Notes: a model not told the origin generated them from the letters alone. DNA of 64,000 bases from Desulfobacteraceae bacterium UBA2156 (GCA_002328165.1 DCWS01000077.1:1624-65623), one strand, 5' to 3'; numbered from the stretch's first letter, positions 1-24,438 are shown. Program-made: numbers and translations.

Positions 1-81
1 ATCCGACCCGGGGGGAAACAGACCTCGGTGGGGGAGCGAAACTCGACCCATAACCTTTAAATGAAAGTGGAGTAATATACC

Positions 82-981
82 ATGTGCGGAATAGCTGGGT
101 TGATAACCCGGAATAACGAATCCCTTGGAACCGACTTGATCAACATGCTCAAGGAGCTGGTCCACCGAGGTAAAGATGCTACCGGGGTGGCGATTTATGA
201 AAAGCGTAATGATGTTCAGCTCAGGGCCTCGATGACCAGTGCGACCCATGAAAAAAGTCTCTTGGACATCATCCAGACTTATGGCAGGGTCACCCATTCA
301 AGAAGCTATCCCGGTTCCGGGATTTATACCTTTTTTGAAGGGTCCCTCGACATGGACCCGAACCAGGTGAGTCAAATGCATTGGGACATCGACTCCCATC
401 CCGAGCTTTGTGTCCATTCCATCGGCCGACAGCTCAAAGTATATAAGGATCAAGGATCAGCCGAGGACCTTCAAAAGTCTCACGAAATCCAGGTTGGCAG
501 GGGTACTCATGGCATCGGTCATGTACGGCTGGCCACGGAAAGCGTAGAGAACGTCAATTTTTCCCACCCGTATGTGTCATATCTTTACCCGGAGCTCTCC
601 CTTGTTCACAATGGCCAATTCACCAATTACTTCAACATGAGAAGGCGTCTTGAAAACAAGGGCATCCGGTTCAAAACTGCCAATGACACGGAAGTGGCCG
701 CCCACTTCATCGCATACGAGATGAAGGAGAATGGATATGACCTGGAGGGGGCGATTCATCTGGCGCTGGATACCTTTGATGGGATTTTTACCATTCTGGT
801 TGCTACGACCGACCGGATCGGGGCGTTTCGGGATCGGTTGGCGTTCAAGCCGGTTGTGGTTTATGAAAAAGAGGACGGCACTGTTCTCTTCGGGTCGGAG
901 CAGATCGCTTTAACCCCCATTGTTTCCGATGTCTATGCCACGGAGATGGAGCCAGGAGGAGTGAAGGTATGGTCCGTTTAG
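82..981 (+). CDS. Class-II (Ntn) glutamine amidotransferase subunit, glutamate-synthase domain-1-like (GlxB/MgsA type)
   Basis: 299-aa ORF beginning MCGIAGL (nucleophile Cys directly after Met). HGIGHVRLAT and VHNGQFTNY motifs are typical of PurF/GltB-type amidotransferases. Overlaps the next ORF by 13 nt. Confidence 0.8.
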   Translation: MCGIAGLITRNNESLGTDLINMLKELVHRGKDATGVAIYEKRNDVQLRASMTSATHEKSLLDIIQTYGRVTHSRSYPGSGIYTFFEGSLDMDPNQVSQMHWDIDSHPELCVHSIGRQLKVYKDQGSAEDLQKSHEIQVGRGTHGIGHVRLATESVENVNFSHPYVSYLYPELSLVHNGQFTNYFNMRRRLENKGIRFKTANDTEVAAHFIAYEMKENGYDLEGAIHLALDTFDGIFTILVATTDRIGAFRDRLAFKPVVVYEKEDGTVLFGSEQIALTPIVSDVYATEMEPGGVKVWSV

Positions 982-1673
982 ATATAAATGAGATGAGTAC
1001 ACGGGATGTGAATCAAAAGCTGAGGGAGTTGATCCTGCAAGATGATGAAATTGTGGTCGAAAACCCCCATTCGGTTCATAACTTTGCCACAGCTCTAAAA
1101 GGAAAAGGGACGATTACGGTGGAGGGAAGCACCGGTTTTTACACCGGCGGATTTTTACAGGGCCCCACCGCTATCATCAAAGGGAATACCGGTTGGTATA
1201 CGGGGGACAACATGGGTGACGGAGAGCTCATTGTTGGGATGAACACCGGCAGCAATTGCGCACCCTCCATGGGGGGCGGTACCATTTTGGTTAAAGGGCA
1301 CAGCGGCAGCCGGGCCGGTTGGGGAATGAAAGGCGGCAACCTGATCATCTGCGGCAACGCCGGTTTGTGGAGCGGTAAAATGACCATGGGAGGACGCATC
1401 ATCATTTTGGGCACTGTGGGCCGGGGGATCGGCGAATCGATGTACAGAGGAATTATCCATGTCCTCGATCCAGAAGTCGAAGATAAACTCGGCGGCAATG
1501 TCATGGTCGTACCGATCGAGGATAAGGAGAAGAGAGAAGTAGAAACTCTTTTCAAAAAATACGGCATCGAACAAGCTGTAGATGGTTTTAGAAGCATCGT
1601 TCCGAAGGTTTATGGGCGACATGAGTACTTTTTGTTTAAACCAACCCATCAGCAGACAGGAGCGCAATCATGA
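969..1673 (+). CDS. GXGXG-repeat subunit, glutamate-synthase domain-3-like (GlxC/MgsB type)
   Basis: 234 aa with repeated G-x-G-x-G beta-helix motifs (GSTGFYTGG, GNTGWYTGD, GHSGSRAGW, GNAGLWSGK). ATGA overlap with the next ORF. Confidence 0.8.
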   Translation: MVRLDINEMSTRDVNQKLRELILQDDEIVVENPHSVHNFATALKGKGTITVEGSTGFYTGGFLQGPTAIIKGNTGWYTGDNMGDGELIVGMNTGSNCAPSMGGGTILVKGHSGSRAGWGMKGGNLIICGNAGLWSGKMTMGGRIIILGTVGRGIGESMYRGIIHVLDPEVEDKLGGNVMVVPIEDKEKREVETLFKKYGIEQAVDGFRSIVPKVYGRHEYFLFKPTHQQTGAQS

Positions 1674-2962
1674 CGGAAAAAGAAAGGAAACCAAGGGCAA
1701 AGGATGTCCAAAGGGGTATCTGGAATCAAGAGGCCATCGCCGAGGTCAAATATAAAGCCGATATGGGCAAGCATCGTATCCGTGGCTGTGGGTCTACAAA
1801 AAAATATCCCACCTTTGACGATCTTTTAATCCTGCCTTCCCAGCTATCGCGTCTGTCCATCGATACATATCGTGAGGATTGTAAAACTCAGACGGTTCTC
1901 GGTGCAAGATATGCAAAAAAACCGCTGGTTGTTGAAACACCCATTCTGATTTCAGGCATGTCCTACGGTGCCTTGAGCAAAGAAGCCAAAACCGCCCTGG
2001 CCAAGTCGACCCAGACTGTCGGGACCTCAATTAATAATGGTGAGGGTGGTCTATTGCCCGGGGAAAGTGAGAACTCTTATAAACAGGTCGTTCAAATAAC
2101 GCCTAGCCGAATGGGATTTTCTTTGCGAAACATTGAGGCCGCCGATGCCCTGGAACTGGTAACCGGCATCGGTGCAAAACCCGGTCTTGCCGGTCATCTG
2201 ATGGGAAACAAAATTACAAAGGAAATTGCGGAATTCAGACAGCTGCCCGAAGGTATCGATCTTCACAGCCACCCCCGGCATGGGGACATCTTTGGCGCGG
2301 ACGATATGGTGCTCAAGGTCGAGGAACTCAGAGACGTCACCGACTATGAAATCCCCATTTTTGTAAAGATTGCTGCAGGCCGTGTCAGAGAGGATGTCAA
2401 AATCGCCGTGAAGACCGGCGTGGATGGGATCGTCATCGATGGTGCTGAAGCAGGTACAGGAGCTGCGCCGGTGGTTGCTTCAACTCACCTGGGCATTCCG
2501 ATCCTGCCGGGGTTGGTCCAAGGCGCTCGCGCCCTGGAAGAGATGGGGGTAAAGGAAGAAGTCAGCCTGATTGTTTCGGGCGGTATCAAGGATGGCGCAG
2601 ACGTTGCAAAGGCGTTGGCCCTGGGAGCGGATGCGGTGGCCATCGGGACTGGGGCTATGGTTGCAATGGGGTGTGTGGTTTGTCTCCGGTGTCACGAAGG
2701 AAAGTGTGCATACGGTATCGGCACCCAGGATTCGGAGCTGCGGAAACGGTTGGATACCGATGCCGCTGCCCAACGGGTGGCCAACTATATCCAGGGCATG
2801 ACCTATGAAGCCGTAATCCTTGCGAAGGCTGCGGGCAAAACCGCTTTGGCGAATATGGAGAGGGAAGATCTGCGTTCTCTGACCCTGGAGGCCTGCGCAA
2901 TGACCGGAACGCCCCTGGCCGGAACAAACTTCGCATTTACCGAACCGTTTGGTTTTTTTTGA
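1670..2962 (+). CDS. FMN-dependent glutamate-synthase domain-2-like subunit (GlxD/MgsC type)
   Basis: 430 aa. SGMSYGALSKEAK...NNGEGG and IVIDGAEAGTGAAP motifs of the GltB FMN domain, plus a Cys-rich CVVCLRCHEGKC segment. Confidence 0.8.
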   Translation: MTEKERKPRAKDVQRGIWNQEAIAEVKYKADMGKHRIRGCGSTKKYPTFDDLLILPSQLSRLSIDTYREDCKTQTVLGARYAKKPLVVETPILISGMSYGALSKEAKTALAKSTQTVGTSINNGEGGLLPGESENSYKQVVQITPSRMGFSLRNIEAADALELVTGIGAKPGLAGHLMGNKITKEIAEFRQLPEGIDLHSHPRHGDIFGADDMVLKVEELRDVTDYEIPIFVKIAAGRVREDVKIAVKTGVDGIVIDGAEAGTGAAPVVASTHLGIPILPGLVQGARALEEMGVKEEVSLIVSGGIKDGADVAKALALGADAVAIGTGAMVAMGCVVCLRCHEGKCAYGIGTQDSELRKRLDTDAAAQRVANYIQGMTYEAVILAKAAGKTALANMEREDLRSLTLEACAMTGTPLAGTNFAFTEPFGFF

Positions 2963-2974
2963 GAGTGAACTGAA

Positions 2975-3301
2975 GTGTTGAGCATGCGGATAGACGATCA
3001 TCCCATATTGGGAACGTTTGAAAAAGGCCAGAAGGTTTCCTTCGTATTTGATGATAAAGCGATGGAAGGTTTTGAAGGGGAGCCGATTGCCGTTGCCCTC
3101 CGAAGCAACGGTGTGAAGATCCATCGTTACACGATGAGGAGAAATCAGCCCCGGGGCATTTTCTGTGCCATCGGACGTTGCACAGATTGTATCATGGTCG
3201 TCGACGGCACGCCGAATGTGCGAACCTGTGTGGAGCCGTTGCAGAAAGGGTCGGTGATCCAGACTCAAGTTGGCGCCGGTCCGGAAGTCACGAGGAAGTA
3301 A
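2975..3301 (+). CDS. Small [2Fe-2S] subunit (HcnA / opine-oxidase / sarcosine-oxidase-alpha N-terminal type)
   Basis: 108 aa. GEPIAVAL..NG and CAIGRCTDCIMVVDGTPNVRTC are characteristic of the 2Fe-2S domain that partners HcnB/OoxA-type flavoproteins. The start could also be ATG 2984. Confidence 0.7.
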   Translation: MLSMRIDDHPILGTFEKGQKVSFVFDDKAMEGFEGEPIAVALRSNGVKIHRYTMRRNQPRGIFCAIGRCTDCIMVVDGTPNVRTCVEPLQKGSVIQTQVGAGPEVTRK

Positions 3302-3304
3302 ATC

Positions 3305-4393
3305 GTGCGCAGATGTGAAATGATAAGTGTCGGAGCCGGTCCTGCGGGTTTGGCCGCTGCCACCGAAGCTGCCAGAAACGGTGTTGAAGTTTTAGTTTTT
3401 GACGAAAATGACCGGCCCGGTGGACAGCTTTTTAAACAGATTCATAAATTCTTTGGGTCAGAAGAACATCATGCCAAGGAGCGGGGTTTTGATATCGGAT
3501 ACGGTTTTCTAGAGGAGGCTGAGAAGCTGGGGGTCGAAGTCTCTTTGAGCTCTGTGGTCATGGGAATCTATGAGAACCGGACGATGAATGTCCTGATCAG
3601 AGATCGGATTGAGCAGGTAAGGGCGGAAAAGATTTTGGTTGCCACCGGTGCGTCAGAAAACATGATTCCATTTCCAGGCTGGACTCTGCCGGGCATAATC
3701 GGCGCTGGAGCGGCCCAGACCATTGCCAACATTCATGGAATAAAACCGGGCGAGAATCTGCTTATGGTCGGGTCGGGGAATGTCGGGCTCGTGGTGGCTT
3801 ATCAGATGCTTCAAGCGGGTTGTCAGGTTTCAGCCATCATAGACGCTGCTCCCCGCATCGGTGGATACGAGGTTCATGCGGCCAAGGTGGCTCGATATGG
3901 TGTCCCGTTTTTCATGTCCCATACCATCACGGAGGCGGGCGGAGAAAAATGGATTGAAAGTGCGACGATCAGCCAGGTCGATAAAGAATGGAAGCCGATT
4001 CCAGGGACCGAAAAAAAATTTGAACTCGATACGGTCTGTATTGCAGTGGGTCTCAACCCAATGACGCAGCTCCTGGATATGTTAAGCTGCAAAATGGTAC
4101 CTGTCCCGTCTCTGGGCGGAAGGGTTCCTGCGCATGACCTGGGCCAGGAAACGTCTATTCCGGGTATTTATGTAGCCGGCGATTCGTCCGGTATTGAGGA
4201 GGCCAGCACAGCCATCATCGAGGGCCGGATTGCGGGATTGGCGATTGCGCACAGCTTGGGATATATAGATGACTCGTCCTTTCTGGAACAACGTGATCGG
4301 CAATTCAAAAGCATGGTGGGGCTGCGGAGCGGTTCCCACGGAGAGGCGCGGAAAATAGCAAAAGAATATATAAATGCAGTGATGAAAGGATAG
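3305..4393 (+). CDS. FAD/NAD(P)-binding pyridine-nucleotide-disulfide oxidoreductase subunit (HcnB/OoxA/LhpF-like alpha subunit)
   Basis: 362 aa. Two Rossmann motifs (VGAGPAGLAAA..E and MVGSGNVGLVVA) and a C-terminal GIYVAGD FAD motif. Confidence 0.75.
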   Translation: MRRCEMISVGAGPAGLAAATEAARNGVEVLVFDENDRPGGQLFKQIHKFFGSEEHHAKERGFDIGYGFLEEAEKLGVEVSLSSVVMGIYENRTMNVLIRDRIEQVRAEKILVATGASENMIPFPGWTLPGIIGAGAAQTIANIHGIKPGENLLMVGSGNVGLVVAYQMLQAGCQVSAIIDAAPRIGGYEVHAAKVARYGVPFFMSHTITEAGGEKWIESATISQVDKEWKPIPGTEKKFELDTVCIAVGLNPMTQLLDMLSCKMVPVPSLGGRVPAHDLGQETSIPGIYVAGDSSGIEEASTAIIEGRIAGLAIAHSLGYIDDSSFLEQRDRQFKSMVGLRSGSHGEARKIAKEYINAVMKG

Positions 4394-4397
4394 TTTC

Positions 4398-4901
4398 ATG
4401 TCCAAGGGGATGTCAGAAACAGGATATCTCTCAGATGAAGAGCTGGATAACGGTCCTGGTATCCCTTCCGAGGGGAGACGGCGTAGAGGCCCGGTGGCGG
4501 TGCTTGAATGCATTCAGGATATCCCCTGTAACCCCTGCGAAGCGAGTTGTCCGGAAGGTGCTATCCAGGTGGGTGAGGACATCACCAATCTTCCCCATCT
4601 GTTGGAAGAGAAATGTATCGGATGTCAATCCTGCTTACCCGTTTGCCCTGGACAGGCTATTTTTTTAGTCGATGAAAGTTCGACGGAAGACGTTTCCAGG
4701 GTAACAATGCCATACGAATTTTTGCCATTACCGGAAAAGGAAGAGACTGTCATCGCATTGGATCGTGCCGGGCAGGAATTGGGCGATACAACGGTCATAA
4801 GAGTTCGGAAAACAGATAAAATGGACCATACTGCTTTGGTCACCATTGAGGTGCCGAAAGAATGGTCCATGAGAACCAGAGCGTTTAAATTAAAACGATA
4901 A
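4398..4901 (+). CDS. Ferredoxin-domain protein (2x[4Fe-4S]-type motifs) with extra C-terminal domain
   Basis: 167 aa. CNPCEASCPEGAI and CIGCQSCLPVCPGQAI motifs. Lies directly between the flavoprotein gene and the first shell gene. Confidence 0.7.
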   Translation: MSKGMSETGYLSDEELDNGPGIPSEGRRRRGPVAVLECIQDIPCNPCEASCPEGAIQVGEDITNLPHLLEEKCIGCQSCLPVCPGQAIFLVDESSTEDVSRVTMPYEFLPLPEKEETVIALDRAGQELGDTTVIRVRKTDKMDHTALVTIEVPKEWSMRTRAFKLKR

Positions 4902-4924
4902 CTCAAACCAGGAGGAAATGAAAA

Positions 4925-5206
4925 ATGAACGAACAAGCGCTGGGTATGGTAGAGACCCGAGGACTGGTAGGTGCCATTGAGGCTGCCGATGCCATGGTCA
5001 AAGCCGCAAAAGTGAGATTTGTGGGAAGGGAATTTGTAGGTGGCGGTCTTGTGACGGTTTTCGTCCGCGGGGATGTTGGTGCGGTTAAAGCGGCAACAGA
5101 TGCCGGCGGTGCGGCGGCCGGAAGGGTGGGCGAACTCATCTCAGTACATGTCATCCCAAGGCCTCACGGAGACGTTGAGTTTACTATTCCCAAGGCGGAA
5201 GAATAA
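4925..5206 (+). CDS. BMC-H shell protein (PduA/EutM-type hexamer)
   Basis: 93 aa. [24 protein letters not shown]...[11 protein letters not shown]...VHVIPRP is a canonical single BMC domain. Good RBS (aggagga) upstream. Confidence 0.9.
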
Positions 5207-5334
5207 CCGTTTCACATTGTGTTGAACCGAAACAGCGAGTGCATTCCCCGCAGCTTGTCGAAGTGCAGCGTAGATTTATTCGCCTATGGAGTATCCTTAC
5301 ATTTAAGGTTGCGGAGTTCTTCAATCTTGATTTT

Positions 5335-5355
5335 GAGAGGGGTTCCTCTCTTTTT
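5335..5355 (+). terminator. Hairpin plus T-run inside the BMC operon (possible partial terminator/attenuator after the first BMC-H gene)
   Basis: gagagg-ggtt-cctctc followed by ttttt, within the unusually long 190-bp gap between 5206 and 5398. Confidence 0.4.
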
Positions 5356-5397
5356 CAGGGAAGATTTGCGTTCGGTATTTTGTGAATTCTCAGAGAT

Positions 5398-5700
5398 ATG
5401 GCTCTAAACATTCAGTTTATAACCCACCCCGGACCCGGTGTCATCAGCATCTTGATGACCCGGATGAGCACATCCGGTCGAAAAACGGTTGAAATGATCG
5501 ATTTGAGCGCCGTTGGGCTCGTCCAGGGTCGTTTGATAGATATGATCTACGCGTCTGATATCGCAGAGAAGTCTGCAAACGTTCAGGTTTTTGATCTCAA
5601 AGGAACCTGTCCGCAACATCTGACGATGATCGGTATTTTTGGCGAGATTGCGGCTGTGAAAGCCGCGCTGGATGCCATATCCGCTGAGGAGGGATTGTAG
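5398..5700 (+). CDS. Circularly permuted single-domain BMC shell protein (EutS/PduU-like)
   Basis: 100 aa. AVGLVQGRLIDMIYASDIAEKSANVQV...GEIAAVKAALDAI aligns by eye to the permuted PduU/EutS order. Confidence 0.65.
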   Translation: MALNIQFITHPGPGVISILMTRMSTSGRKTVEMIDLSAVGLVQGRLIDMIYASDIAEKSANVQVFDLKGTCPQHLTMIGIFGEIAAVKAALDAISAEEGL

Positions 5701-5762
5701 CAGTGGATTTCATCGATTTGGTGTAATCCGATCATTGTAAACAAGCGTAAAGGTAGTTGGGT

Positions 5763-6053
5763 ATGATACTCGGTAAAATTGTCGGAGATGTCTGGTCGAC
5801 CAAAAAGAATGACAAAATCCATGCGTTAAGACTTCTCTTTGTCCAGCCCCTGGGGAAGGATTTAACCCCGTGCGGAGAAATGCTGATTGCTGCAGATGAG
5901 ATTGGGGCAGGGATGGGGGAGATGGTAATTGTCACTCAAGGCGCACCGGCCATGCAGGCATTTAACAAAGATTCGTTGATTCCTGTGGATGCCGTGGTGG
6001 TCGGTATTGTCGATAACCTTGAAATACCGGAAAAGCCAGACGCCGACGGATAA
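5763..6053 (+). CDS. BMC-P vertex pentamer (EutN/CcmL family)
   Basis: MILGKIVGDVWSTKK...LLFVQP...IAADEIGAGMGEMVIV..G...VDAVVVGIVD is a typical EutN/CcmL pattern. ATG 5763 is preferred over the TTG at 5757. Confidence 0.85.
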   Translation: MILGKIVGDVWSTKKNDKIHALRLLFVQPLGKDLTPCGEMLIAADEIGAGMGEMVIVTQGAPAMQAFNKDSLIPVDAVVVGIVDNLEIPEKPDADG

Positions 6054-7391
6054 ATGATAAAACAGGAGATTGTAGAAAAAGTCAGGGCCGCAGGCGTCGT
6101 AGGGGCAGGTGGCGCCGGTTTTCCCACCCACGTCAAACTCGAAGCGGATGTTGAAAGGGTGCTCGGGAACGGGGCATCCTGCGAACCGCTTCTGATGAGC
6201 GACCTTTTTTTGGTGGAGAACGAGTCAGAAGATATTCTCAGCGGCCTTTCCATGGTGATGCAGAGCACTGGGGCCGGACGTGGAACCCTCTGTCTCAAAG
6301 AGAAACATTTCGAAGCCTTTGGCACACTGGAAAAAATGATCTCAAAGCACAAAATAAAAGATATCGATATTTTTAGACTGGGTGATTTTTATCCGGCAGG
6401 CGACGAAATGGTTTTGGTCTATGAAGTAATGAATCGGGTGGTGCCTGAGGGTGGCTTCCCGCTACAGGTGGGGGTTGTGGTAAATAATGTTGAATCTCTT
6501 CTCAACATTGCCCGGGCTGTAAAAACCGATAAACCCGTTACCGAGAGATATCTGACCGTTGCCGGGGAGGTGCAAAAAAACTTGGTTGTGAAAGTGCCGG
6601 TCGGTATTTCTGTGGGTGAAGTCATAAACCTTGCCGGCGGTGCAACCATTAGTGATTTTAAAGTTATTGTCGGGGGACCGATGATGGGGCAGGTTGTCAC
6701 CGATCTTTCCACGTCGGTGGACAAGACCACAAGTGGAGTAATTGTTCTACCCATCAATCATAATGTCATTGCCGGCAAAACAGATGATCCGGAAAGAATC
6801 AGACAGATTACCCGTTTGTTTTGTTGCCAGTGTTCGCGGTGCACGGATCTGTGCCCAAGGACACTGCTGGGTCATTCCCTTGAATCCCATAAAATTATGC
6901 GGCAACTAGGGGTCGGGTCCCAGCTGGTCTCCGAGGCGTTGTTAGAGGATGCGCTCATCTGTTCAGAATGCGGCATATGTGAAAAGTTTGCATGTCCGAT
7001 GATGATTTCTCCACGGGAGGTCAATGCACAGATCAAGAGAGAAATGATGGAAAAAGGTGTCGACAGATCTCCCAAAAAGATCGACTATCAACCCTCGGCT
7101 TTCAGAGATGTTCGTAAGATCCCAACCAAAAGGCTTATGGAACGTTTGCAGGTGAGCCGGTACGACCAACACCCTGAAATTTTTACAGGGAAAATAGAGG
7201 TAAAAAAAGCAACGATTCCGTTAAAGCAGCACATTGGAGCACCGGCAATACCTGTGGTTAAAACCGGAGACCGTGTCGATAAGGGAGATCTCGTCGGGGA
7301 GATTCCGAATAAGACATTGGGTGCCAGGGTCCACGCCAGCATCTCCGGTGTGGTGGAATCCGTGGGAACGGACGTTGTAATCCGACAATAA
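6054..7391 (+). CDS. PduS/RnfC-like Fe-S flavoprotein (NADH-binding SLBB-type, two 4Fe-4S motifs)
   Basis: 445 aa. N-terminal GVVGAGGAGFPTHVKL, then CCQCSRCTDLCP and CSECGICEKFACP cluster motifs. Located inside the shell gene block. Confidence 0.8.
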   Translation: MIKQEIVEKVRAAGVVGAGGAGFPTHVKLEADVERVLGNGASCEPLLMSDLFLVENESEDILSGLSMVMQSTGAGRGTLCLKEKHFEAFGTLEKMISKHKIKDIDIFRLGDFYPAGDEMVLVYEVMNRVVPEGGFPLQVGVVVNNVESLLNIARAVKTDKPVTERYLTVAGEVQKNLVVKVPVGISVGEVINLAGGATISDFKVIVGGPMMGQVVTDLSTSVDKTTSGVIVLPINHNVIAGKTDDPERIRQITRLFCCQCSRCTDLCPRTLLGHSLESHKIMRQLGVGSQLVSEALLEDALICSECGICEKFACPMMISPREVNAQIKREMMEKGVDRSPKKIDYQPSAFRDVRKIPTKRLMERLQVSRYDQHPEIFTGKIEVKKATIPLKQHIGAPAIPVVKTGDRVDKGDLVGEIPNKTLGARVHASISGVVESVGTDVVIRQ

Positions 7392-7469
7392 AAGGTGGAA
7401 CCTTTGAAAAACATCGCTTTTTGCCCAAAATAAAAATCAGCATTTTTCAAAGATCTCTAGGTGTAACGA

Positions 7470-8021
7470 ATGGATTATAAGGCCATCGGGCTCATTGAAA
7501 CAAATAGTGTTGCCAAAGGAATTGAGTGCGCCGATGAAATGATCAAGGCAGCTGCCGTGGAGCTTTTGATGGCCCGCAGCGCATGTCCGGGCAGATATTT
7601 GGCGATGATCTCAGGTGATGTAGATTCAGTCGAAAATTCCGTCGATGTTGGAAGCGAAGTGGCCGGCGAGTTTCTTGTTGGAATATTTATCATTCCCAAT
7701 GTGCATTCAACGGTCTTTCCGGCTTTGGGCTGTGTCACCCCGATGCCTTCGATGAATGCCCTGGGTATCATCGAAACATTTTCCACTGTTTCTTGTATTG
7801 TTGCGGCCGATGCCGCGGCAAAAGCAGGGGATGTTGAACTGATTGAGATTCGCTGTGCCACAGGTCTGGCCGGGAAATCCTATGTCACACTGACCGGCGA
7901 CGTCGGATCGGTTAATGCTGCTGTTGATGCCGGTATCGCTGAAGTGGCGGAAGAAGGGATGATACAGAGCCATGTGGTTATCCCTTCCCCAAGCAAGGAG
8001 CTTTTTTCAAGACTGGCATAA
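7470..8021 (+). CDS. BMC-T tandem-domain shell protein, PduT-like with conserved pore cysteine
   Basis: 183 aa with two BMC domains (AIGLIETNS..., ALGIIETFS...). ARSACPGRYLAMISGDV aligns with the PduT segment TICPGKFLLMLGGDI that carries the [4Fe-4S]-ligating Cys. Confidence 0.8.
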   Translation: MDYKAIGLIETNSVAKGIECADEMIKAAAVELLMARSACPGRYLAMISGDVDSVENSVDVGSEVAGEFLVGIFIIPNVHSTVFPALGCVTPMPSMNALGIIETFSTVSCIVAADAAAKAGDVELIEIRCATGLAGKSYVTLTGDVGSVNAAVDAGIAEVAEEGMIQSHVVIPSPSKELFSRLA

Positions 8022-8872
8022 TGGAAACAATTGAAAAAATTGGCTGGATGCTAAATCAACCCGAACGGTGGGATTTTTCAGGAACGGAAAATCTGTACGC
8101 GGGTGTTGATCTTGGTACCTACAAAACCATCGTTATTGTGGTCGATGAGAAGGGAACGCCGCGTGCAGCAAACCTGCGTAAGGCTGAAGTGGTGCGGAGC
8201 GGGCTGATCGTCGATTATATAAGTGCCCTGGATATTGTCCGAGAGCTGATGGATGAGATCAGAAACTGCAGCCCCCAGAAGATAAATAAAGGAGCCACCT
8301 CATTTCCACCGCAAACCGAAACCGCCAATATCAACACTACAAAATATATACTCGAAAGTGTTGATCTAGAGGTCCTCAGGGTACTGGATGAACCGACAGC
8401 CGCAAGATTCGCACTCAATATGAGGGATGGGGCCATAGTCGATGTGGGTGGTGGCACAACCGGAGTGGCGGTCATAAGGGATGGTGAAGTCATTTATACC
8501 AATGACGAGGCGACCGGAGGAGAGCATCTGTCGCTGGTTTTGGCCGGACATCTGAATATCAGTTATGAGGAGGCCGATCAGATCAAGTTGAAAAAGGAAA
8601 ATACGCAACAGATACTTTCCATCGTTCAACCGGTCATCGATAAAATATCAAGCATTGTCGGGTCCTTTTTGAATAATTTTACCGGAATCGACACAATTTA
8701 TCTGGCAGGTGGAACATGCGAGCTTGATGGGCTAGCTGAAATTGTTTCTAAAAACCTAAACCTTGTGACCTTCCGGCCAAAGGCGCCGCAATTCATTACC
8801 CCTTTCGGCATTGCCCTTTCATGTCTTAAAACAAATGGACATGATGCTGAGGTAGGAAAATGGCCAATCTGA
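8021..8872 (+). CDS. EutJ-like actin/Hsp70-fold chaperone
   Basis: 283 aa. GVDLGTYKT, VLDEPTAA and IVDVGGGTTGVAV sugar-kinase/Hsp70 ATPase motifs. TAATG overlap with the BMC-T gene. Confidence 0.75.
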   Translation: METIEKIGWMLNQPERWDFSGTENLYAGVDLGTYKTIVIVVDEKGTPRAANLRKAEVVRSGLIVDYISALDIVRELMDEIRNCSPQKINKGATSFPPQTETANINTTKYILESVDLEVLRVLDEPTAARFALNMRDGAIVDVGGGTTGVAVIRDGEVIYTNDEATGGEHLSLVLAGHLNISYEEADQIKLKKENTQQILSIVQPVIDKISSIVGSFLNNFTGIDTIYLAGGTCELDGLAEIVSKNLNLVTFRPKAPQFITPFGIALSCLKTNGHDAEVGKWPI

Positions 8873-9663
8873 AAAAAGAAGAAATCAGACGATTTGTCCT
8901 TGATGTCTTAAAAGAGATGGGATCAACCGGAAAGAAGGAAACAAAATCGGTTTCAACGTATTCAAAGGGACCCTATGTATTCTGCATCTTCCACGCCGGT
9001 GTTCGTAAACTGGACACGGCGTTGAAACAGGTCCAACTGATTGGAGAACAGGCGGTTAAGTGTGGAATATACACGGGTGAGTCTGCTCGGGGTCGGGTTT
9101 GCGGGGGTGATGTCAGGGAGAAAGCAGGGACGCGCTGTATTCTTGATAATGTAAAGACAGACGGGTTGAATAAGGTTTTGGAAAGGGCGGATCTATTGGT
9201 ACTTCCCACCTTTTGTCTCAGGGTGGCTGCAAAAGTGGCCAATCTGATATGTGATGATCCTGAATCGAGTCTCGTTCTTTCTGCTCTGCTGCAGGGGAAA
9301 AGGATTTTGGCGACCCGAGACAGCTTCCTGGTCTGTGACATTCTGGTCAATGCGAGGCTAAAAAAAGAAATAGACAATATTTTGGAGAAACTGCAAAGTT
9401 TTGGAATGGTTTTCTGTGAAACCGGGCAGTTGAACGAGATGTTCCAGCAGTTGATCGTTGAACAGAAAAATACCGAGGGCGCTGAAGATAAAGCACCTCT
9501 AACGGAAGTGGCTGCTTCTACGGTAAAATTTATCAACGCAAAAGATGTTTACGCAGCTGTCGATCAAAAGAAGCATACCCTTGCGCTTTCTCCCGGCGGC
9601 ATTGTAACCCCCTTGGCGAAAGATCTGGCAAAGGAGTATTCAATCAAGATTGTTAAGACCTGA
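8860..9663 (+). CDS. BMC-associated protein with flavoprotein-like (CoaC/EpiD-fold-like) core, an N-terminal amphipathic helix and a C-terminal ~45-aa domain shared with the 10741 ORF
   Basis: 267 aa. ADLLVLPTFCLRVAAKVANLICDD...LLQGKRIL resembles the Flavoprotein family. The N-terminus EEIRRFVLDVLKEM is encapsulation-peptide-like. Function unknown. Confidence 0.45.
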   Translation: MANLKKEEIRRFVLDVLKEMGSTGKKETKSVSTYSKGPYVFCIFHAGVRKLDTALKQVQLIGEQAVKCGIYTGESARGRVCGGDVREKAGTRCILDNVKTDGLNKVLERADLLVLPTFCLRVAAKVANLICDDPESSLVLSALLQGKRILATRDSFLVCDILVNARLKKEIDNILEKLQSFGMVFCETGQLNEMFQQLIVEQKNTEGAEDKAPLTEVAASTVKFINAKDVYAAVDQKKHTLALSPGGIVTPLAKDLAKEYSIKIVKT

Positions 9664-9749
9664 TCAATCATGCGATCGGTATTTCCCATCAAAAAAGAAG
9701 CATTAGAAAAAAACCTTTGGTTAAAATTTCACATCAGGGAGACATATTT

Positions 9750-10367
9750 ATGGCTGAACTGAGGGCCTTTTGTCATTTGGATCGGATGCAACCACAGTTT
9801 GCATCTTTATTTGCGTCCCGCTGCCGCGGTTTCCTCTCCGTGGAGGGTATGGCCTCTTTATTTGTGGAGGTGGTCCCCGGCATTGAAATCAATCGCTTAA
9901 CTGATATTGCCCTAAAAATTACAGGTTCTCTCCCGGGTGAGATGATTGTTGAGCGTCGTTACGGGATGCTGGAAATCCATTCCTTTGAGCAGGAAGAAGT
10001 GCTTCACGCCGGTCAGATGATTTTGGATGAACTGGATTTAAAAGTAGAAAATCGACTGGCGCCGGCTATTTTAACAACCAGCGTAATCAACAAGGTTGAT
10101 CCGTATCAGGCGGTGATTATCAACCGCAACAGCAGTGGAATGCTCATTTTAGGGGGTGATGATGTTTACCTTCTAGAAGTTACACCGGCTGCCTATTCTT
10201 CCATCGCAGCCAACGAAGCGGAAAAACACTGCAATATACGACTGGTTGATATCCGGTTCTTTGGAGCTGCCGGGCGGGTCTACATGGCAGGAAGCGAATC
10301 CGAAATTCAGGCAGCGGCAAAAAAAGTGGTTGACACCTTAACCGGTCTTGAGGGGAGAAACCAATGA
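9750..10367 (+). CDS. BMC-T tandem permuted shell protein, CcmP/CsoS1D-like (double-stacking type), paralog 1
   Basis: MAELRAFCHLDRMQPQF...VEVVPGIEINRLTDIALK...VERRYGMLEIH...AANEAEK...FGAAGRVYMAG matches the remembered CcmP sequence pattern along its whole length. ATG 9750 with RBS agggaga. Confidence 0.7.
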   Translation: MAELRAFCHLDRMQPQFASLFASRCRGFLSVEGMASLFVEVVPGIEINRLTDIALKITGSLPGEMIVERRYGMLEIHSFEQEEVLHAGQMILDELDLKVENRLAPAILTTSVINKVDPYQAVIINRNSSGMLILGGDDVYLLEVTPAAYSSIAANEAEKHCNIRLVDIRFFGAAGRVYMAGSESEIQAAAKKVVDTLTGLEGRNQ

Positions 10368-10383
10368 TTGGAGGATTTAACCG

Positions 10384-10740
10384 ATGCAACAGGCTTTGGG
10401 ATTGATTGAAACAAGAGGGCTGGTGGCTGCCATTGAGGCTGCAGACGCGATGGTTAAAGCTGCCAACGTCAAACTGTTGGGCCGTCAGAAAGTCAAAGGC
10501 GGATTGGTATCTGTCATGATTTCCGGGGATGTGGGTGCTGTTAAAGCAGCTGTCGATGCAGGCTCGGCAGCATGCGGGAAGGTGGGTGAGCTTGTTTCTA
10601 TCCATGTCATCCCCAGGCCGAGAGACGATATTGAGCATATTATTCCTAAAGGACCGCCAGAGGAAAAGCCGGCGGATAAGAAAAAAACACCAGCTCGGAA
10701 GCGGAAACCAAAAAAACATCATAAAAGTCAGGGGAAGTAA
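10384..10740 (+). CDS. BMC-H shell protein with ~30-aa lysine/arginine-rich C-terminal tail
   Basis: 118 aa. Canonical BMC domain ([24 protein letters not shown]...[11 protein letters not shown]...IHVIPRP), then [28 protein letters not shown]. Confidence 0.9.
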
Positions 10741-11331
10741 GTGGCACCTGTTTTTATATTCATCGAAGATATCCAGAAGGCTCTAGATTCGGACAAAAAG
10801 GAAATCATGATCCCCCGGGAGACGAGAATTTCAGCGGCAGCCTTCGATCTGATTAAGGGCAATGACATCCGGATTCGTTTTGTTGGCGATCAAAAGGATG
10901 ATGCTTTAAAAGCGCCTGTCGATCCGACGCAGGAGACGCAGGCATCTCCTGCTGTTGGCCGGATATCAGATGGAGAACTGGAAAAAGTTGTCGACCTAGT
11001 TATCAGCCGAATCAAAGGGGCCAAGAGTCAAGAATCCTCTGAAACCGTGAAAAAAGAAAACGGACCTACGGATGACGACCTGGTGATTTGCCGGTGCGAG
11101 GAGATTACCAAGGGAGAGATCAAGGAAGTGATCAAAAATGGGATAAAGACCCCAAATGGTATCAAGCGTATTACCCGGGCGGGGATGGGGCTTTGTCAAG
11201 GACAGACATGCCAGCGGTTGGTGACGCAGATTCTGGCCACCGGGCTCGGTATCAATCCGACTGAGATTAAACCGACGACAGGACGGGCGCCGGTCAGACC
11301 GGTTTCTTTTTCGGCTTTTTCGACTGGATAA
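10741..11331 (+). CDS. BFD-like [2Fe-2S] protein with N-terminal ~45-aa domain and an internal amphipathic helix
   Basis: 196 aa. C-terminal ICRCEEITKGEI...GMGLCQGQTCQ is the Fer2_BFD motif found in HcnB/OoxA-type enzymes. The N-terminus aligns to the C-terminus of the 8860 ORF. GTG start directly after the preceding stop. Confidence 0.6.
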   Translation: MAPVFIFIEDIQKALDSDKKEIMIPRETRISAAAFDLIKGNDIRIRFVGDQKDDALKAPVDPTQETQASPAVGRISDGELEKVVDLVISRIKGAKSQESSETVKKENGPTDDDLVICRCEEITKGEIKEVIKNGIKTPNGIKRITRAGMGLCQGQTCQRLVTQILATGLGINPTEIKPTTGRAPVRPVSFSAFSTG

Positions 11332-11375
11332 TGCAAAAGATATTTCAACATTCCCCATAAACAACGGGAGAACAG

Positions 11376-12581
11376 ATGCCCAATAAAGCAGATGTGGTCA
11401 TTATCGGCGGTGGTGTTACGGGGAACGCCATTGCATATAACTTGGCCAAAGAAGGACTAAAACCAGTCGTTATCGAGAAGTCGGACATCGGAGGAGAAGC
11501 CTCCGGTAGCACTGGTGGCGGTGTCCGCCAGTCGGCTCGAAATCTGAAAGAGATGCCTATGGCCATGGAAAGCATTCGCTTATATGGCCAACTCCATGAA
11601 GAATTGGGCATGGATGTTGAGTATGTCAGGGAAGGGAACCTTCGATTATGTACCAGTGAAGAAGAATTAGAGACCATGCGCACCTCTGTTGAAAATCAGA
11701 AATCGGTCGGGCTCAATCTTGAGATGATAGACCGAAAACAGATTCTGAAAATCAACCCCTTTGTGGGCGAAAAAGTAATCGGTGCCGGCTACTGCCCCAC
11801 AGATGGCCATGTGAACCCCTTCCTAGTCACCTATGCTTTTTTTAAAAAAGCAAAAAGTCTTGGCGCATTGTACCACACCCATGAGGAAGTGACCGACATA
11901 AGACTGAGGAGGGGTAAAGTGGTTGCGGTCATTACCGATAAACAGGAGGTTGAAACTGATCTGGTGGTCAACGCCGCAGGGATAACCGGGCGAAAGGTCG
12001 CAAATATGGTTGGGATCGATCTGCCGATGCGGCCGGTTTTTACCGAGGCTTTGATAACCGAACCTTACCCACCTTTTTTTAAACAGATGATCGGACATGC
12101 CAAAGGACTTTTTTACGGCCGCCAAACGGTTCATGGCCCCTTTCTTTGGGGTGGCTTTGTTGGCACCGAAACGTTTATCCACCAGGGAGGCAAGCCACTC
12201 TTCCACTTTATCGGTCCCGCCATTTCCCGGATGGTGATTGACTTTTTTCCCATTCTTAAAGATTTCCATGTCATTCGCACATGGTCCGGACTCATCGCTC
12301 AGATGTCTGACGGAATACCGGTTCTTGGCCTGGTTGATGAAGTCCCCGGGTTTGTGTTTGCGACAGGATTCAGCGGGCACGGTTTTGGACTGGCTCCTGT
12401 AATCGGCCGGCTCATTTCAGAATTAATTATGGATTGCGAAGCTTCTATTCCGATAAATGACTTCTGTTATTCACGGTTTTACAGAGGCGGTGATCACGAA
12501 TGCGCTTGTAAAGGAAACGCGGCCTGTACAACAGTTACCGCCATCTGTCCCAACAAAAGGGAATGGCTGAAAAGTATATGA
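11376..12581 (+). CDS. FAD-dependent oxidoreductase, DAO family (SoxB/HcnC/OoxB/LhpB/proline-dehydrogenase beta-like catalytic subunit)
   Basis: 401 aa. DVVIIGGGVTGNAIAYNLAK dinucleotide fold, GYCPTDGHVNP, and the GFSGHGFGLAPVIG C-terminal motif typical of sarcosine-oxidase-beta-like enzymes. Cys-rich C-terminal tail. Confidence 0.8.
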   Translation: MPNKADVVIIGGGVTGNAIAYNLAKEGLKPVVIEKSDIGGEASGSTGGGVRQSARNLKEMPMAMESIRLYGQLHEELGMDVEYVREGNLRLCTSEEELETMRTSVENQKSVGLNLEMIDRKQILKINPFVGEKVIGAGYCPTDGHVNPFLVTYAFFKKAKSLGALYHTHEEVTDIRLRRGKVVAVITDKQEVETDLVVNAAGITGRKVANMVGIDLPMRPVFTEALITEPYPPFFKQMIGHAKGLFYGRQTVHGPFLWGGFVGTETFIHQGGKPLFHFIGPAISRMVIDFFPILKDFHVIRTWSGLIAQMSDGIPVLGLVDEVPGFVFATGFSGHGFGLAPVIGRLISELIMDCEASIPINDFCYSRFYRGGDHECACKGNAACTTVTAICPNKREWLKSI

Positions 12582-12595
12582 AAAGATGAGGGATT

Positions 12596-13207
12596 ATGGT
12601 CGAACTCAGGGCTTTTTCCTATATGGATGAATTGCAAAAACAGTTTGTCGGTTACATCAGCACAACTGCCCGTGGGTATTATCCGGTTGCCGGCCAGGCG
12701 GCATTATTTTTAGAAATTGCCCCTGGAATCGAGATCAATTCACTTACGGATGTACTCATGAAAAAAGCGAACGTTCGACCCGGTGCCATGGTCGTGGAAA
12801 GGATCTTTGGCATGTTGGAAGTGCATGCGGATTCCCCGGCGGACGTTCATATGGCAGGTGAAGTGGCATTGGATTACTTGGGACTAAAGGAAGGCGACAG
12901 GCTAAAACCAAAAATATTGGCGACCGAAACCATAGAAAGAATAGAGCCCTATATGAGTCAGATCGTCAACCGCTTTCGGGACGCCAGCATGGTTTTATCA
13001 GATGAAACTCTTTATATCTTAGAATGTGTTCCAGCCGGGTATGCTGGATATGCGGCCAATGAGGCTGAAAAAAAAGCCGATATCAAGTTGATCCACCTCA
13101 CTGTCTTTGGTGCCACCGGCCGGGTCTATTTGGCCGGAACCACCTCCAACATTCAAGCAGCGAAAGAGGTGGCAGAAAGTTCTTTATTGGCATTGGATGG
13201 CAGGTGA
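12596..13207 (+). CDS. BMC-T tandem permuted shell protein, CcmP/CsoS1D-like, paralog 2
   Basis: 203 aa. ELRAFSYMDELQKQF...LEIAPGIEINSLTD...VERIFGMLEVH...DRLKPKI...AANEAEKKA...FGATGRVYLAG. Clear paralog of 9750-10367. Confidence 0.7.
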   Translation: MVELRAFSYMDELQKQFVGYISTTARGYYPVAGQAALFLEIAPGIEINSLTDVLMKKANVRPGAMVVERIFGMLEVHADSPADVHMAGEVALDYLGLKEGDRLKPKILATETIERIEPYMSQIVNRFRDASMVLSDETLYILECVPAGYAGYAANEAEKKADIKLIHLTVFGATGRVYLAGTTSNIQAAKEVAESSLLALDGR

Positions 13208-13231
13208 AACCGATAAACTCTTTTTGATTTT

Positions 13232-14188
13232 TTGCTTATGAATTCAGCTAAAAAAGATTTATTTGATAAAATTGTCAGGGTCTACCCCAATCTTTCTCCC
13301 AAAAAGAAACGGGTAGCGGATTACATTATCAAAGATCATAAAAAGCTTTTTCTGATGACTGCCAGAGAGATTGCTCAGGAATGCCGGGTCAGTGAGCCAA
13401 CCATTATTCGGTTCACAAACGACCTCGGGTTTTCAGGATATCAGGGGTTTGTTCAGTACATGAAGGGACTCCTCCATATCGAATTGACGGCGGTTGAAAG
13501 ACTGATAAAGGCCAGCCAGCAGTCAGACCAAGCGGATACCCTCGACAAATATTGTCAAAATGCAATACGCAATCTTGAAAATTTACGAAGTTCGATCTCT
13601 AAAAAGGAGCTGAAAAGAGTTGCCAGGGTCATTCATAATGCTGAACAGGTATATGTTGTCGGGTATCGGGCATCGACCACATTGGCTTTTTATTTCGGTT
13701 ATCTCCTCGGTAAAATTCTCGAAAATGTCTTCCTGGATACATCCCTATCCTGGAAACTCATGGATAAAATCGCGCGAAATGGCAAATCAAGCGTTATGTT
13801 TGTTATCGCTTTCCCCAGATATCCGCTGAAAGTTATTCGCCTTCTGGAATATGCCAAAAGATATCGGGTAAAAATCATCGGTCTCAGCGATACACCAAAA
13901 TCCCCCATCATCGCGCTTTCTGATCAATATATTCTTATCGACCTTGAATCGGTGTCATTTATAGATCCTTTTGCCCATATAATTACATATCTTGGCGCCC
14001 TGATTCATGAAATTACTTTTTTAGATCAGCAGCAGGCCATGAAATATCTTTCCAGGTTTGACCATGCTGCAAAATCAGGGAAAGAATTCTTCACGGAAGA
14101 AAACGCTGATTTGGAAAAGAAGCAAAAATTCGATCATTCATATCTCACATCATTTTGGCCCGGTGATCACACACATCAACCGGGTTAG
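13232..14188 (+). CDS. RpiR/MurR-family transcriptional regulator (HTH + SIS domain)
   Basis: 318 aa. N-terminal LSPKKKRVADYIIKD...TAREIAQECRVSEPTIIRF HTH_6 pattern, followed by a SIS-like region (VYVVGYRAS...). Confidence 0.8.
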   Translation: MLMNSAKKDLFDKIVRVYPNLSPKKKRVADYIIKDHKKLFLMTAREIAQECRVSEPTIIRFTNDLGFSGYQGFVQYMKGLLHIELTAVERLIKASQQSDQADTLDKYCQNAIRNLENLRSSISKKELKRVARVIHNAEQVYVVGYRASTTLAFYFGYLLGKILENVFLDTSLSWKLMDKIARNGKSSVMFVIAFPRYPLKVIRLLEYAKRYRVKIIGLSDTPKSPIIALSDQYILIDLESVSFIDPFAHIITYLGALIHEITFLDQQQAMKYLSRFDHAAKSGKEFFTEENADLEKKQKFDHSYLTSFWPGDHTHQPG

Positions 14189-14218
14189 GAACAAGTGCTG
14201 AAACCCCGGGAGATCGGC

Positions 14219-15694: not shown

Positions 15695-15704
15695 ATGGTA
15701 TGTT

Positions 15705-17141: not shown

Positions 17142-17154
17142 CCGTTACCTCCAA

Positions 17155-17586: not shown

Positions 17587-17650
17587 GAACTCAAGTTTCG
17601 CATCTGATATTTTGAGAAAAGCCGCATCAGGCGTATACCTTGGAAGGCCG

Positions 17651-20065: not shown

Positions 20066-20284
20066 GATAAAAAGCGGTGCTTTTTATTGAAGGCTTTTTT
20101 GCTTTTCGCTTTTCAGCAGAGAGCAAAAAAGTAAAGCGCAGAGGGGGTGGGTTGTTGGTTCCCCGGTTAACAACGTTAGTACTCTTCTTTTTTGTGAAAA
20201 ATCTTATTATTCGCCCCACACCGGATGCGGGTCTTTGTTAAATAAAAGGTGTGAAACTTAAGTTATTGATTCGTAAAGGGGGCT

Positions 20285-20779: not shown

Positions 20780-20911
20780 TCTTCTTTTAAAAAGTCTTTT
20801 ATGAGCGGCATTGAGTCCCGCCAGCAGCGGGAGAAATAGCGGAATGAAATGCTGAATCTTAAAAATTGTAAATTGTTCGATCCATCCTCAAATGGTTTTT
20901 AGCGGAGGCCC

Positions 20912-24354: not shown

Positions 24355-24438
24355 AAAATTCAAGATCCAATTGCCTTTATCACCGGTACGTCGGCGGCGG
24401 TTGAGCGTGGGAAACCGGTGAAATAGAAAGGAGACAAC

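Follow-up and report, generated by a model that had tools for sequence, protein, structure and literature searches.

A candidate anaerobic amine-to-aldehyde route built on a ligase, a split glutamate-synthase-like trio and a SoxA/SoxB-like dehydrogenase at MIC6 microcompartment loci of Desulfobacterales

A 64,000-nucleotide stretch of DNA from Desulfobacteraceae bacterium UBA2156 (the window, meaning the whole stretch that was analyzed) carries three genes that resemble the large subunit of glutamate synthase split into its domains, followed by the shell genes of a bacterial microcompartment (BMC) of the MIC6 type. MIC6 is among the microcompartment types listed without a recognizable aldehyde-generating signature enzyme; the 2021 catalog contains three MIC6 loci, gives no function for them, and is silent on the ligase, trio, and SoxA-like genes upstream of the shell genes that are described here (Sutter et al. 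2021, PMC8217296). What, then, does a glutamate-synthase-like trio do at the front of such a locus? The reading that we favor, at a probability of roughly one half, is an anaerobic, iron-sulfur (Fe-S)-wired analog of the N-methylglutamate pathway, in which an amine would be converted to an aldehyde released inside the shell. In the literature that was searched, no report was found linking MIC6, Desulfobacterales, or any microcompartment to glutamate-synthase-like genes or to the N-methylglutamate pathway.

The trio and the ligase gene ahead of it

The trio genes (coordinates of all features are given in Table 1) are open reading frames (ORFs) that overlap by 13 nt between subunits A and B and by 4 nt between subunits B and C. 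Their products matched the Pfam domains GATase_6 (E 2.5e-18) and GATase_7 (E 1.6e-16) in subunit A, GXGXG (PF01493, E 9e-21) in subunit B, and Glu_synthase (PF01645, E 9.2e-101) in the flavin mononucleotide (FMN) subunit C. Subunit A retains all catalytic residues of class II amidotransferases, namely Cys1, Arg (HVRLATES), Asn-Gly (VHNG), and Asp (NDTE). The initial annotation, made from the window sequence alone, had read these genes as a coupled, split glutamate-synthase-like trio that is not followed by a GltD-like subunit, and the ORFs, their overlaps, the Pfam domains, and the Cys1 residues bear this out. Neither electron partner of a glutamate synthase, a GltD subunit or a fused ferredoxin domain, was found here: the next genes encode a Fer2_4-type 2Fe-2S protein, a flavoprotein, and a 2x[4Fe-4S] ferredoxin (Fd); GltD models matched the flavoprotein only in its N-terminal flavin adenine dinucleotide (FAD) motif, its best match being SoxA; and the Pfam search of subunit C revealed no ferredoxin domain. 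Subunit C carries a G-C-x2-C-x2-C-x4-C motif that aligned with the 3Fe-4S ligands of E. coli GltB, with four cysteines at this position compared to three in GltB.

The trio had also been taken for the head of its operon, which proved incorrect. On the 121-kb source contig L005, a marine metagenome assembly that is identical to the window around the window start (window positions 1 and 82 correspond to contig positions 8332 and 8413) and matches the subunit C sequence exactly, a gene for a glutamine synthetase (GS)-like ligase precedes the trio by 108 nt. A GmaS-like gene had been suspected beyond the window edge, and inspection of the upstream sequence thus revealed a candidate for it. No terminator-like site was found between the ligase and the trio, and a search for riboswitch clues to the ligand gave no Rfam match upstream of either. 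The gaps between the genes from 82 to 18778 range from -68 to 191 nt, consistent with a single operon.

True glutamine synthetases bind and deprotonate ammonium through Asp50' and Glu327, whereas the γ-glutamyl-amide synthetase GmaS carries Ala48' and Trp300 at these two positions (PMC7948447). In an alignment with E. coli GlnA, the ligase retains the metal, ATP, and glutamate residues, and has Ala in place of Asp50' and Phe in place of the flap residue Glu327; PuuA, like the ligase and GmaS, is without both ammonia-specific residues. As judged from these residues, the enzyme is a predicted ligase of the γ-glutamyl-amine type and not a glutamine synthetase. It scored below the cutoff of every NCBIfam model tried, including GlnT/GSIII (TIGR03105; 316 bits, cutoff 470), GlnA (293 bits), and γ-glutamylputrescine synthetase (267 bits), and by the first of these scores it is not a GmaS ortholog. 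Its putative amine pocket also differs from that of GmaS, with Gln175 replaced by Cys, Asp177 by Asn, and Asp180-Ala181 by Phe-Phe. Therefore, methylamine is not implied as the amine.

The relation of the trio to the N-methylglutamate synthase MgsABC (rhizobial GlxBCD) was assessed with a neighbor-joining tree of 95 FMN domains (300 bootstrap replicates). Subunit C of the window, a Desulfobacterales relative, and versions from loci without shell genes formed one clade with 100% bootstrap support. This clade was sister to a wider group containing MgsC in ~67% of the replicates and to a ferredoxin-fused archaeal-type protein in ~17%, and it grouped with the six MgsC-clade sequences alone in 6%. 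GltB (~32% identical to subunit C) was the outgroup and never grouped with subunit C, and firm clustering with ammonia-assimilating glutamate synthases was not seen. The MgsC proteins compared, which come from alpha- and gammaproteobacteria and actinobacteria (Rhizobium etli, Ponticoccus, Acinetobacter, and Mycobacterium), all (4/4) have a cysteine-free insertion (GDN.P...AAG.YDD) in place of the Fe-S motif, whereas the four cysteines are kept in the window clade and in most other members of the split family. Being so common across the family, the motif is best regarded as a probable ancestral state and not as evidence of glutamate synthase function. The separate clade and the motif together indicate that the trio is a distinct lineage of the GlxBCD/MgsABC/archaeal-type superfamily. 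The N-methylglutamate synthase architecture proposed earlier thus stands as far as the three-polypeptide layout is concerned but does not extend to orthology with MgsABC, which the phylogeny and the Fe-S motif rule out. A housekeeping glutamate synthase was likewise rejected as a candidate, given the outgroup position of GltB and a partner ligase that is not a true glutamine synthetase. We also looked for an Fe-S motif alongside an N-methylglutamate-type gene cluster; the nearest cysteine-containing MgsC-like group (P0125 type) consists of Gemmataceae proteins from genomes in which the genes are scattered, and their context was not informative.

The dehydrogenase and the inherited module

The genes that follow the trio and those that follow the shell genes contain pieces of a multi-subunit amine dehydrogenase. 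The Fer2_4 protein, the FAD subunit, and a protein with BFD and A3 domains (BFD/A3) matched consecutive stretches of SoxA (residues 10-99, 168-497, and 521-596, respectively), and the DAO-family subunit matched SoxB across its full length, so that these four proteins together correspond to SoxB and the N-terminal half of SoxA. Among solved structures, the best match of the FAD subunit was the SoxA alpha subunit (2gag_A). That of the DAO subunit was 1y56_B (E 4e-55), which we take to be the beta subunit in the structure of the Pyrococcus horikoshii L-proline dehydrogenase complex. The crystal structure of such a complex from this archaeon is cited in a study of the heteromeric class (PMC4575208, ref. 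30). By sequence matches, the gene set of the heteromeric HcnABC, OdhABC, and archaeal proline dehydrogenase (PDH) enzymes (DAO, FAD, 2Fe-2S, and BFD/A3) is complete at this locus. As in OdhABC, D-hydroxyproline dehydrogenase, HcnABC, and archaeal PDH, a DAO catalytic subunit is combined with an FAD subunit of the pyridine-nucleotide-disulfide type and a small 2Fe-2S subunit. Unlike these dye-linked enzymes, the present one has BFD/A3 as a separate polypeptide, an additional 2x[4Fe-4S] ferredoxin, and a four-cysteine tail on the catalytic subunit; its genes are split by shell genes, and it carries an encapsulation peptide.

The heteromeric class, to which D-hydroxyproline dehydrogenase, HCN synthase, and flavin opine dehydrogenase belong, oxidizes secondary amines, and the opine enzyme recognizes the N-substituted glutamate moiety of nopaline (PMC4575208). 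By analogy, a secondary amine of the N-substituted-glutamate type would be a natural substrate for such a complex. Domain searches found no GcvT/folate-binding domain in any protein of the locus. This is the domain through which sarcosine oxidase and N-methylglutamate dehydrogenase pass formaldehyde to tetrahydrofolate, and its absence fits a dehydrogenase that would release free aldehyde.

To place these genes in context, we compared gene orders with a synteny script in 31 related loci obtained from a scan of one genome per species. Every Desulfobacterales locus that was long enough showed the order ligase-A-B-C-Fer2_4-FAD subunit-Fd-[shell genes]-BFD/A3-DAO-BMC-T, the shell genes being inserted between Fd and BFD/A3. 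Five of the loci (L034-L038) have no shell genes and the order ligase-A-B-C-Fer2_4-(FAD subunit fused to Fd)-BFD/A3-DAO-RidA, with a fusion protein of 528 aa and RidA directly after DAO in each case. Their hosts are Acetobacterium carbinolicum DSM 2925, another Acetobacterium, Lachnoclostridium UBA1308, Anaeromicropila populeti 743A, and one Desulfobacter metagenome-assembled genome; in the four Firmicutes loci a conserved uncharacterized protein and an APC permease precede the module. Thus, the ligase, the trio, the SoxA/SoxB-like dehydrogenase, and RidA are one inherited module, and the tie between the trio and a Sox/Hcn/Oox-like dehydrogenase that had been proposed for the window extends, together with the ligase, across the 31 loci. 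The occurrence of the trio in relatives without BMC genes had been named in the initial annotation as one half of what would speak against its proposal. In all five cases the trio is accompanied by the same ligase and dehydrogenase, which supports the pathway reading and shows that the shell is an add-on to the enzyme module. The module is also widespread: homologs of subunit C with at least 83% identity (83-95%) fall into >120 protein clusters, and subunit C and DAO are each represented in >120 clusters at ≥81% identity, compared to the three loci of the MIC6 catalog (PMC8217296).

Comparison of the loci with and without shell genes further indicated which proteins may be encapsulated. In all shell-containing loci BFD/A3 has ~100 extra N-terminal residues ending in an amphipathic, encapsulation-type helix (candidate peptide DGELEKVVDLVISRIKGA); the extension is missing from the shell-less loci, where the protein has 113-127 aa. 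The four-cysteine tail of DAO is likewise confined to shell-containing loci. Microcompartment-specific extensions are limited to BFD/A3, DAO, and the two aldehyde dehydrogenases, and none was found by this comparison on the ligase, subunits A, B, and C, Fer2_4, the FAD subunit, or Fd. The trio thus probably works outside the shell. Of the BMC-associated N-methylglutamate-type route that had been put forward for the window, the co-inheritance of ligase, trio, and dehydrogenase is supported, but a trio inside the shell is not.

Separately, the C-terminus of the protein encoded at 8860-9663 and the N-terminus of BFD/A3 (10741-10880) have a common motif, I(T/S)P.A.DL(A/I)KE..I.I, which is conserved at the BFD/A3 N-terminus wherever shell genes are present and could serve both proteins for docking or binding. 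A variant locus, L039 from Desulfococcaceae bacterium HSG9 (6928-15789), has the genes for the ligase and subunits A, B, and C followed by an aldehyde dehydrogenase, a LysE exporter, a second aldehyde dehydrogenase, and a gene resembling class I glutamine amidotransferases (GATase); the Fer2_4, FAD subunit, shell, and DAO genes were not seen in this stretch, and the contig ends ~7.7 kb downstream.

The proposed route and its competitors

From the gene content, co-inheritance, residue patterns, and encapsulation-type extensions observed above, we infer a three-step, O2-independent route from amine to aldehyde with the trio as the middle step. In the first step, as the residues and context of the ligase suggest, a primary amine, not ammonia, would be joined at the expense of ATP to the γ-carboxyl group of glutamate. 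In the second, by analogy with MgsABC, the Cys1 site of subunit A would hydrolyze the γ-glutamyl-amide, and the amine would be channeled along a scaffold provided by the GXGXG subunit to the FMN subunit, which would condense it with 2-oxoglutarate and reduce the imine to an N-substituted glutamate; with the predicted Fe-S cluster that it keeps, subunit C, unlike MgsC, would probably exchange electrons with a partner. In the third, a complex of Fer2_4, the FAD subunit, Fd, BFD/A3, and DAO, whose domains are evident and whose substrate is predicted, would oxidize the N-alkyl side of the secondary amine, and RidA-assisted hydrolysis of the resulting imine would yield glutamate and an aldehyde. 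In Desulfobacterales this last step would take place inside the MIC6 shell, where two coenzyme A (CoA)-acylating aldehyde dehydrogenases could trap the aldehyde as acyl-CoA, the ligase and trio being probably cytosolic. The set of redox components, namely the predicted Fe-S cluster of subunit C, ferredoxin, PduS, and two Fe-S pore proteins, suggests electron transfer between the enzymes and across the shell.

This route finds its closest counterpart in the N-methylglutamate pathway, where the same three functional classes are clustered: GmaS, MgsABC, and an N-methylglutamate dehydrogenase that is either SoxBDAG-like or, in Mycobacterium, a single FAD oxidoreductase. The arrangement of this pathway is seen in plasmid-borne clusters of R. 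etli and Ponticoccus (soxBDAG-like genes with glxBCD and glnT), of Acinetobacter, and of Candidatus Mycobacterium methanotrophicum (glnT-A-glxC-FMN-FAD oxidoreductase). In favor of our reading, the order ligase-A-B-C-FAD oxidoreductase is the same as in the Mycobacterium plasmid cluster, and the functions of ligase, trio, and oxidoreductase are also clustered in R. etli and Ponticoccus. A three-polypeptide trio with intact Cys1 and a ligase that has neither Asp50' nor Glu327 are common to both systems. The two differ in the dehydrogenase, which here consists of five separate Fe-S/flavin polypeptides and has no counterpart of the folate-binding GcvT half of SoxA, in the hosts, which are strict anaerobes, and in the link of the pathway to a microcompartment. 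Sequence identities to N-methylglutamate-type proteins are low for subunit A (33-35% to R. etli GlxB and its Ponticoccus homolog) and subunit B (27% to GlxC), and reach 44-46% for subunit C (to MgsC).

Several observations count against this reading. The ligase is no closer to GlnT/GmaS (31% identity) than to PuuA (32%), with scores below every NCBIfam cutoff; the trio lies outside the MgsC clade, and subunit C is ~50% identical to ferredoxin-fused archaeal-type glutamate-synthase-like proteins; the four-cysteine motif that subunit C keeps is gone from all four bona fide MgsC proteins, so that its redox chemistry may differ; no aldehyde dehydrogenase gene is present in the operon of the shell-less loci; and several relatives have a class I amidotransferase-like gene beside the aldehyde dehydrogenases, as in γ-glutamylation pathways of the Puu and aniline types. 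In the aniline-degradation pathway, too, GS-like ligases have hydrolase partners.

The last of these points leads to the alternative that survives best, an anaerobic Puu-like route, which we nevertheless regard as unlikely. Here, the ligase would γ-glutamylate a diamine or amino alcohol, the dehydrogenase would oxidize the free end of the γ-glutamyl compound, the aldehyde formed in this way inside the shell would be oxidized further by the aldehyde dehydrogenases, a class I GATase-like hydrolase would remove the glutamyl group, and the trio would recycle or salvage γ-glutamyl amides. The sequence of GS-like γ-glutamylation, DAO-family oxidation, and aldehyde dehydrogenation would match the E. 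coli Puu pathway, as would the similarity of the ligase to PuuA and to the γ-glutamylputrescine synthetase model. Class I GATase-like genes (PRK07053-like, below cutoff) adjoin the aldehyde dehydrogenase genes in L046 (16574-17236), L047 (14631-15344), and L039 (15049-15789); the shell-less loci have a permease of the amino acid/polyamine type, CN-hydrolase genes are close by, and a GGACT-like gene is present in an Acetobacterium locus. In contrast to the E. coli pathway, however, the locus has a trio, a multi-subunit O2-independent dehydrogenase, and acylating aldehyde dehydrogenases. A Puu-like route has no function for the trio, which is never missing and surpasses all other parts of the locus in conservation (83-95% identity). 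The class I GATase gene is found neither in the window nor in the shell-less loci, the window has no PuuD-type γ-glutamyl hydrolase, and the GATase-like proteins, considered as candidates for PuuD, were rejected in the absence of any BLAST similarity to it. In addition, the DAO subunit scored higher against N-methylglutamate-cluster and Sox-type enzymes (119 and 103 bits) than against PuuB (79 bits), and the two aldehyde dehydrogenases are of the acylating EutE/PduP type (527 and 516 bits with PRK15398, cutoff 403), not the PuuC type.

A second alternative, to which we attach quite a low probability, is that the trio is an archaeal-type glutamate synthase that makes glutamate from glutamine and 2-oxoglutarate with electrons from the adjacent ferredoxin and flavoprotein, and that it works with the GS-like enzyme to recapture ammonia freed by an amino-acid dehydrogenase and RidA. 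Separate A, B, and C subunits, the C-x2-C-x2-C-x4-C motif at the position of the GltB cluster, and ~50% identity in subunit C are traits common to the window trio and the archaeal-type split proteins; Cys1 and the glutamine-binding residues are intact, RidA implies an ammonia-releasing imine hydrolysis, and the public annotation reads 'FMN-binding glutamate synthase family protein'. The four-cysteine motif, however, is common to the whole split family and hence not specific. The window lineage also differs from the archaeal-type proteins in having no fused ferredoxin, in always occurring with a non-ammonia ligase and a Sox-like dehydrogenase, and in mostly not being their sister group. Pairing with a true glutamine synthetase was not found, the partner ligase being without the ammonium residues Asp50' and Glu327 (PMC7948447). 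The flavoprotein, Fer2_4, and BFD/A3 are fragments of SoxA that belong with DAO and not with GltD, and the operon has catabolic features, with its own permease or ATP-binding cassette (ABC) transporter and its own regulator.

The catabolism of a pre-formed secondary amine (a proline-like imino acid, an opine, or another N-substituted amino acid), in which the dehydrogenase would be the entry point and the ligase and trio would act downstream, could be accommodated by the 1y56_B match of DAO, by the opine and D-hydroxyproline dehydrogenases of its class, and by transporters of the tripartite ATP-independent periplasmic (TRAP) or ABC type for carboxylate-bearing solutes in some loci, but it is very unlikely given that every locus has the ligase and trio at the front of the operon, that their sole characterized counterparts act upstream of the dehydrogenase, and that accessory genes specific to proline or opines were not found in the loci.

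The preferred reading, the Fe-S-wired analog of the N-methylglutamate pathway, can be extended in two speculative directions, which we think have a slim chance of being correct. One is a transaminase-like cycle, independent of pyridoxal phosphate and driven by ATP, in which electrons would return to the Fe-S/FMN subunit of the trio: the electrons of the N-alkylglutamate would leave the lumen via PduT- and GrpU-type Fe-S pores and PduS, and would reduce the next imine of amine and 2-oxoglutarate. Such a cycle would allow strict anaerobes to oxidize amines without an external electron acceptor. The other takes methylamine or a similarly small alkylamine as the substrate. In that case, marine sulfate-reducing Desulfobacterales would consume amines that are now called 'non-competitive' substrates of methanogens, with formaldehyde or another aldehyde contained in a protein organelle. 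A call of the substrate from the transporters and accessory genes was attempted and abandoned, because the loci differ and the family scores are far below the cutoffs: Liv-type ABC, APC, and TRAP transporters, CN-hydrolase, amidohydrolase, class I GATase, and GGACT-like genes all vary among the loci.

With the ligase, the glutamate-synthase-like trio, and the multi-subunit amine dehydrogenase inherited as a unit, MIC6 gains a candidate signature set. If the proposed route is correct, MIC6 would be the first microcompartment tied to γ-glutamyl or N-alkylglutamate chemistry and would contain an O2-independent counterpart of the N-methylglutamate pathway, with a bearing on the turnover of organic amines in anoxic sediments. 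The locus is common among Desulfobacterales in public genomes and metagenomes, beyond the three cataloged examples, and the shell-less versions in the cultured anaerobes A. carbinolicum DSM 2925 and A. populeti 743A make the hypothesis testable.

The shell locus and its surroundings

The shell locus is of the MIC6 type and agrees point by point with the cataloged features of this type, among them PduS, a pfam04324 2Fe-2S protein, a pfam01266 oxidoreductase with a C-terminal four-cysteine extension, and aldehyde dehydrogenases with N-terminal encapsulation peptides (PMC8217296, Supplementary Data 2). In the relatives, the genes downstream of DAO encode, in this order, BMC-T, an RpiR-family regulator, the two aldehyde dehydrogenases, often a class I GATase-like protein, RidA, and the Old Yellow Enzyme homolog, after which variable hydrolases and transporters follow.

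Table 1. Features of the locus, in window coordinates unless the source contig L005 is given
Feature	Position	Strand	Remarks
GS-like ligase, Gln-synt_C, 445 aa	L005 6968-8305		108 nt ahead of trio
Intergenic leader	1-81	+	Ligase gene ends 27 nt before window position 1 on source contig L005
Subunit A, class II (N-terminal nucleophile, Ntn) amidotransferase, GlxB/MgsA-like	82-981	+	299 aa, start MCGIAG
Subunit B, GXGXG beta-helix protein, GlxC/MgsB-like	969-1673	+	234 aa
Subunit C, FMN subunit, four-cysteine Fe-S motif (GCVVCLRCHEGKC)	1670-2962	+	430 aa
2Fe-2S subunit, Fer2_4, HcnA/OdhC/SoxA-N-terminus-like	2975-3301	+	PF13510 E 3e-26
FAD subunit, HcnB/OdhA/archaeal PDH alpha-like, second GxGxxG motif	3305-4393	+	TIGR01372 E 2.1e-40
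2x[4Fe-4S] ferredoxin (Fd)	4398-4901	+	Fer4_7
BMC-H	4925-5206	+	PF00936 E 5e-28
GrpU-type permuted BMC-H, GTCPQ motif (Fe-S at pore)	5398-5700	+	PF00936; MIC6 description in PMC8217296 Suppl. Data 2
BMC-P pentamer	5757-6053	+	PF03319 E 5e-26
PduS/RnfC-like flavin Fe-S protein	6054-7391	+	Complex1_51K, RnfC_N, Fer4_17
PduT-type BMC-T, pore cysteine (SACPG)	7470-8021	+	Two BMC domains
EutJ-like actin-fold protein	8021-8872	+	
TIGR02536-family protein	8860-9663	+	
CsoS1D/CcmP-like BMC-T	9717-10367	+	PF27545 in identical contig L005
Second BMC-H	10384-10740	+	PF00936
BFD-type 2Fe-2S + SoxA A3 domain protein	10741-11331	+	Fer2_BFD, SO_alpha_A3
Catalytic DAO-family subunit, SoxB/archaeal PDH beta-like, C-terminal four-cysteine extension	11376-12581	+	PF01266 E 2e-71
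Second CsoS1D-like BMC-T	12596-13207	+	
RpiR-family regulator (HTH_6 + SIS)	13232-14188	+	Position kept in L046, L047
EutE/PduP-type acylating aldehyde dehydrogenase 1	14195-15694	+	N-terminal encapsulation peptide QIEQIVEQVV or QIEQIVGMVLERL (pair of enzymes)
EutE/PduP-type acylating aldehyde dehydrogenase 2	15627-17141	+	Probable true start 15705; peptide as above (pair of enzymes)
RidA-family imine/enamine deaminase	17110-17586	+	Kept in L046, L047
Old Yellow Enzyme-family flavoprotein	17552-18778	+	Kept in L046, L047

Upstream of the ligase, on the opposite strand of L005 (1-6000), are genes for a dynamin-like GTPase, a 244-aa URO-D-family protein, FmdE, and molybdenum cofactor biosynthesis; the URO-D family presumably also holds methylcobamide methyltransferases. 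In two other Desulfobacterales loci (L001 1569-6607 and L002 1949-6810), a five-gene Liv-type ABC transporter lies directly ahead of the ligase. Its Peripla_BP_6 binding protein is weakly similar to urea-binding proteins, and the transporter is missing from the contig of the window. Downstream of the module, the window carries a TRAP transporter (19007-22213) instead. It is followed at 23149-27973 by genes for a CN-hydrolase (401 aa), an Fe-S protein that weakly resembles reductive dehalogenases in one region, and a molybdopterin oxidoreductase (763 aa). CN-hydrolase genes also flank two Acetobacterium shell-less loci (L036 and L037). Between the TRAP and CN-hydrolase genes lies an apparent gene fragment, a 119-aa ORF (22314-22673) whose match to the glycine-cleavage P protein (E 4e-8) is confined to residues 38-114. 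From 28000 to its end at 64000, the window carries housekeeping genes, among them those for S-adenosylhomocysteine hydrolase, S-adenosylmethionine (SAM) synthetase, subunits of an Mrp-type antiporter, a class A penicillin-binding protein, ClpB, and a MiaB-like radical SAM enzyme.

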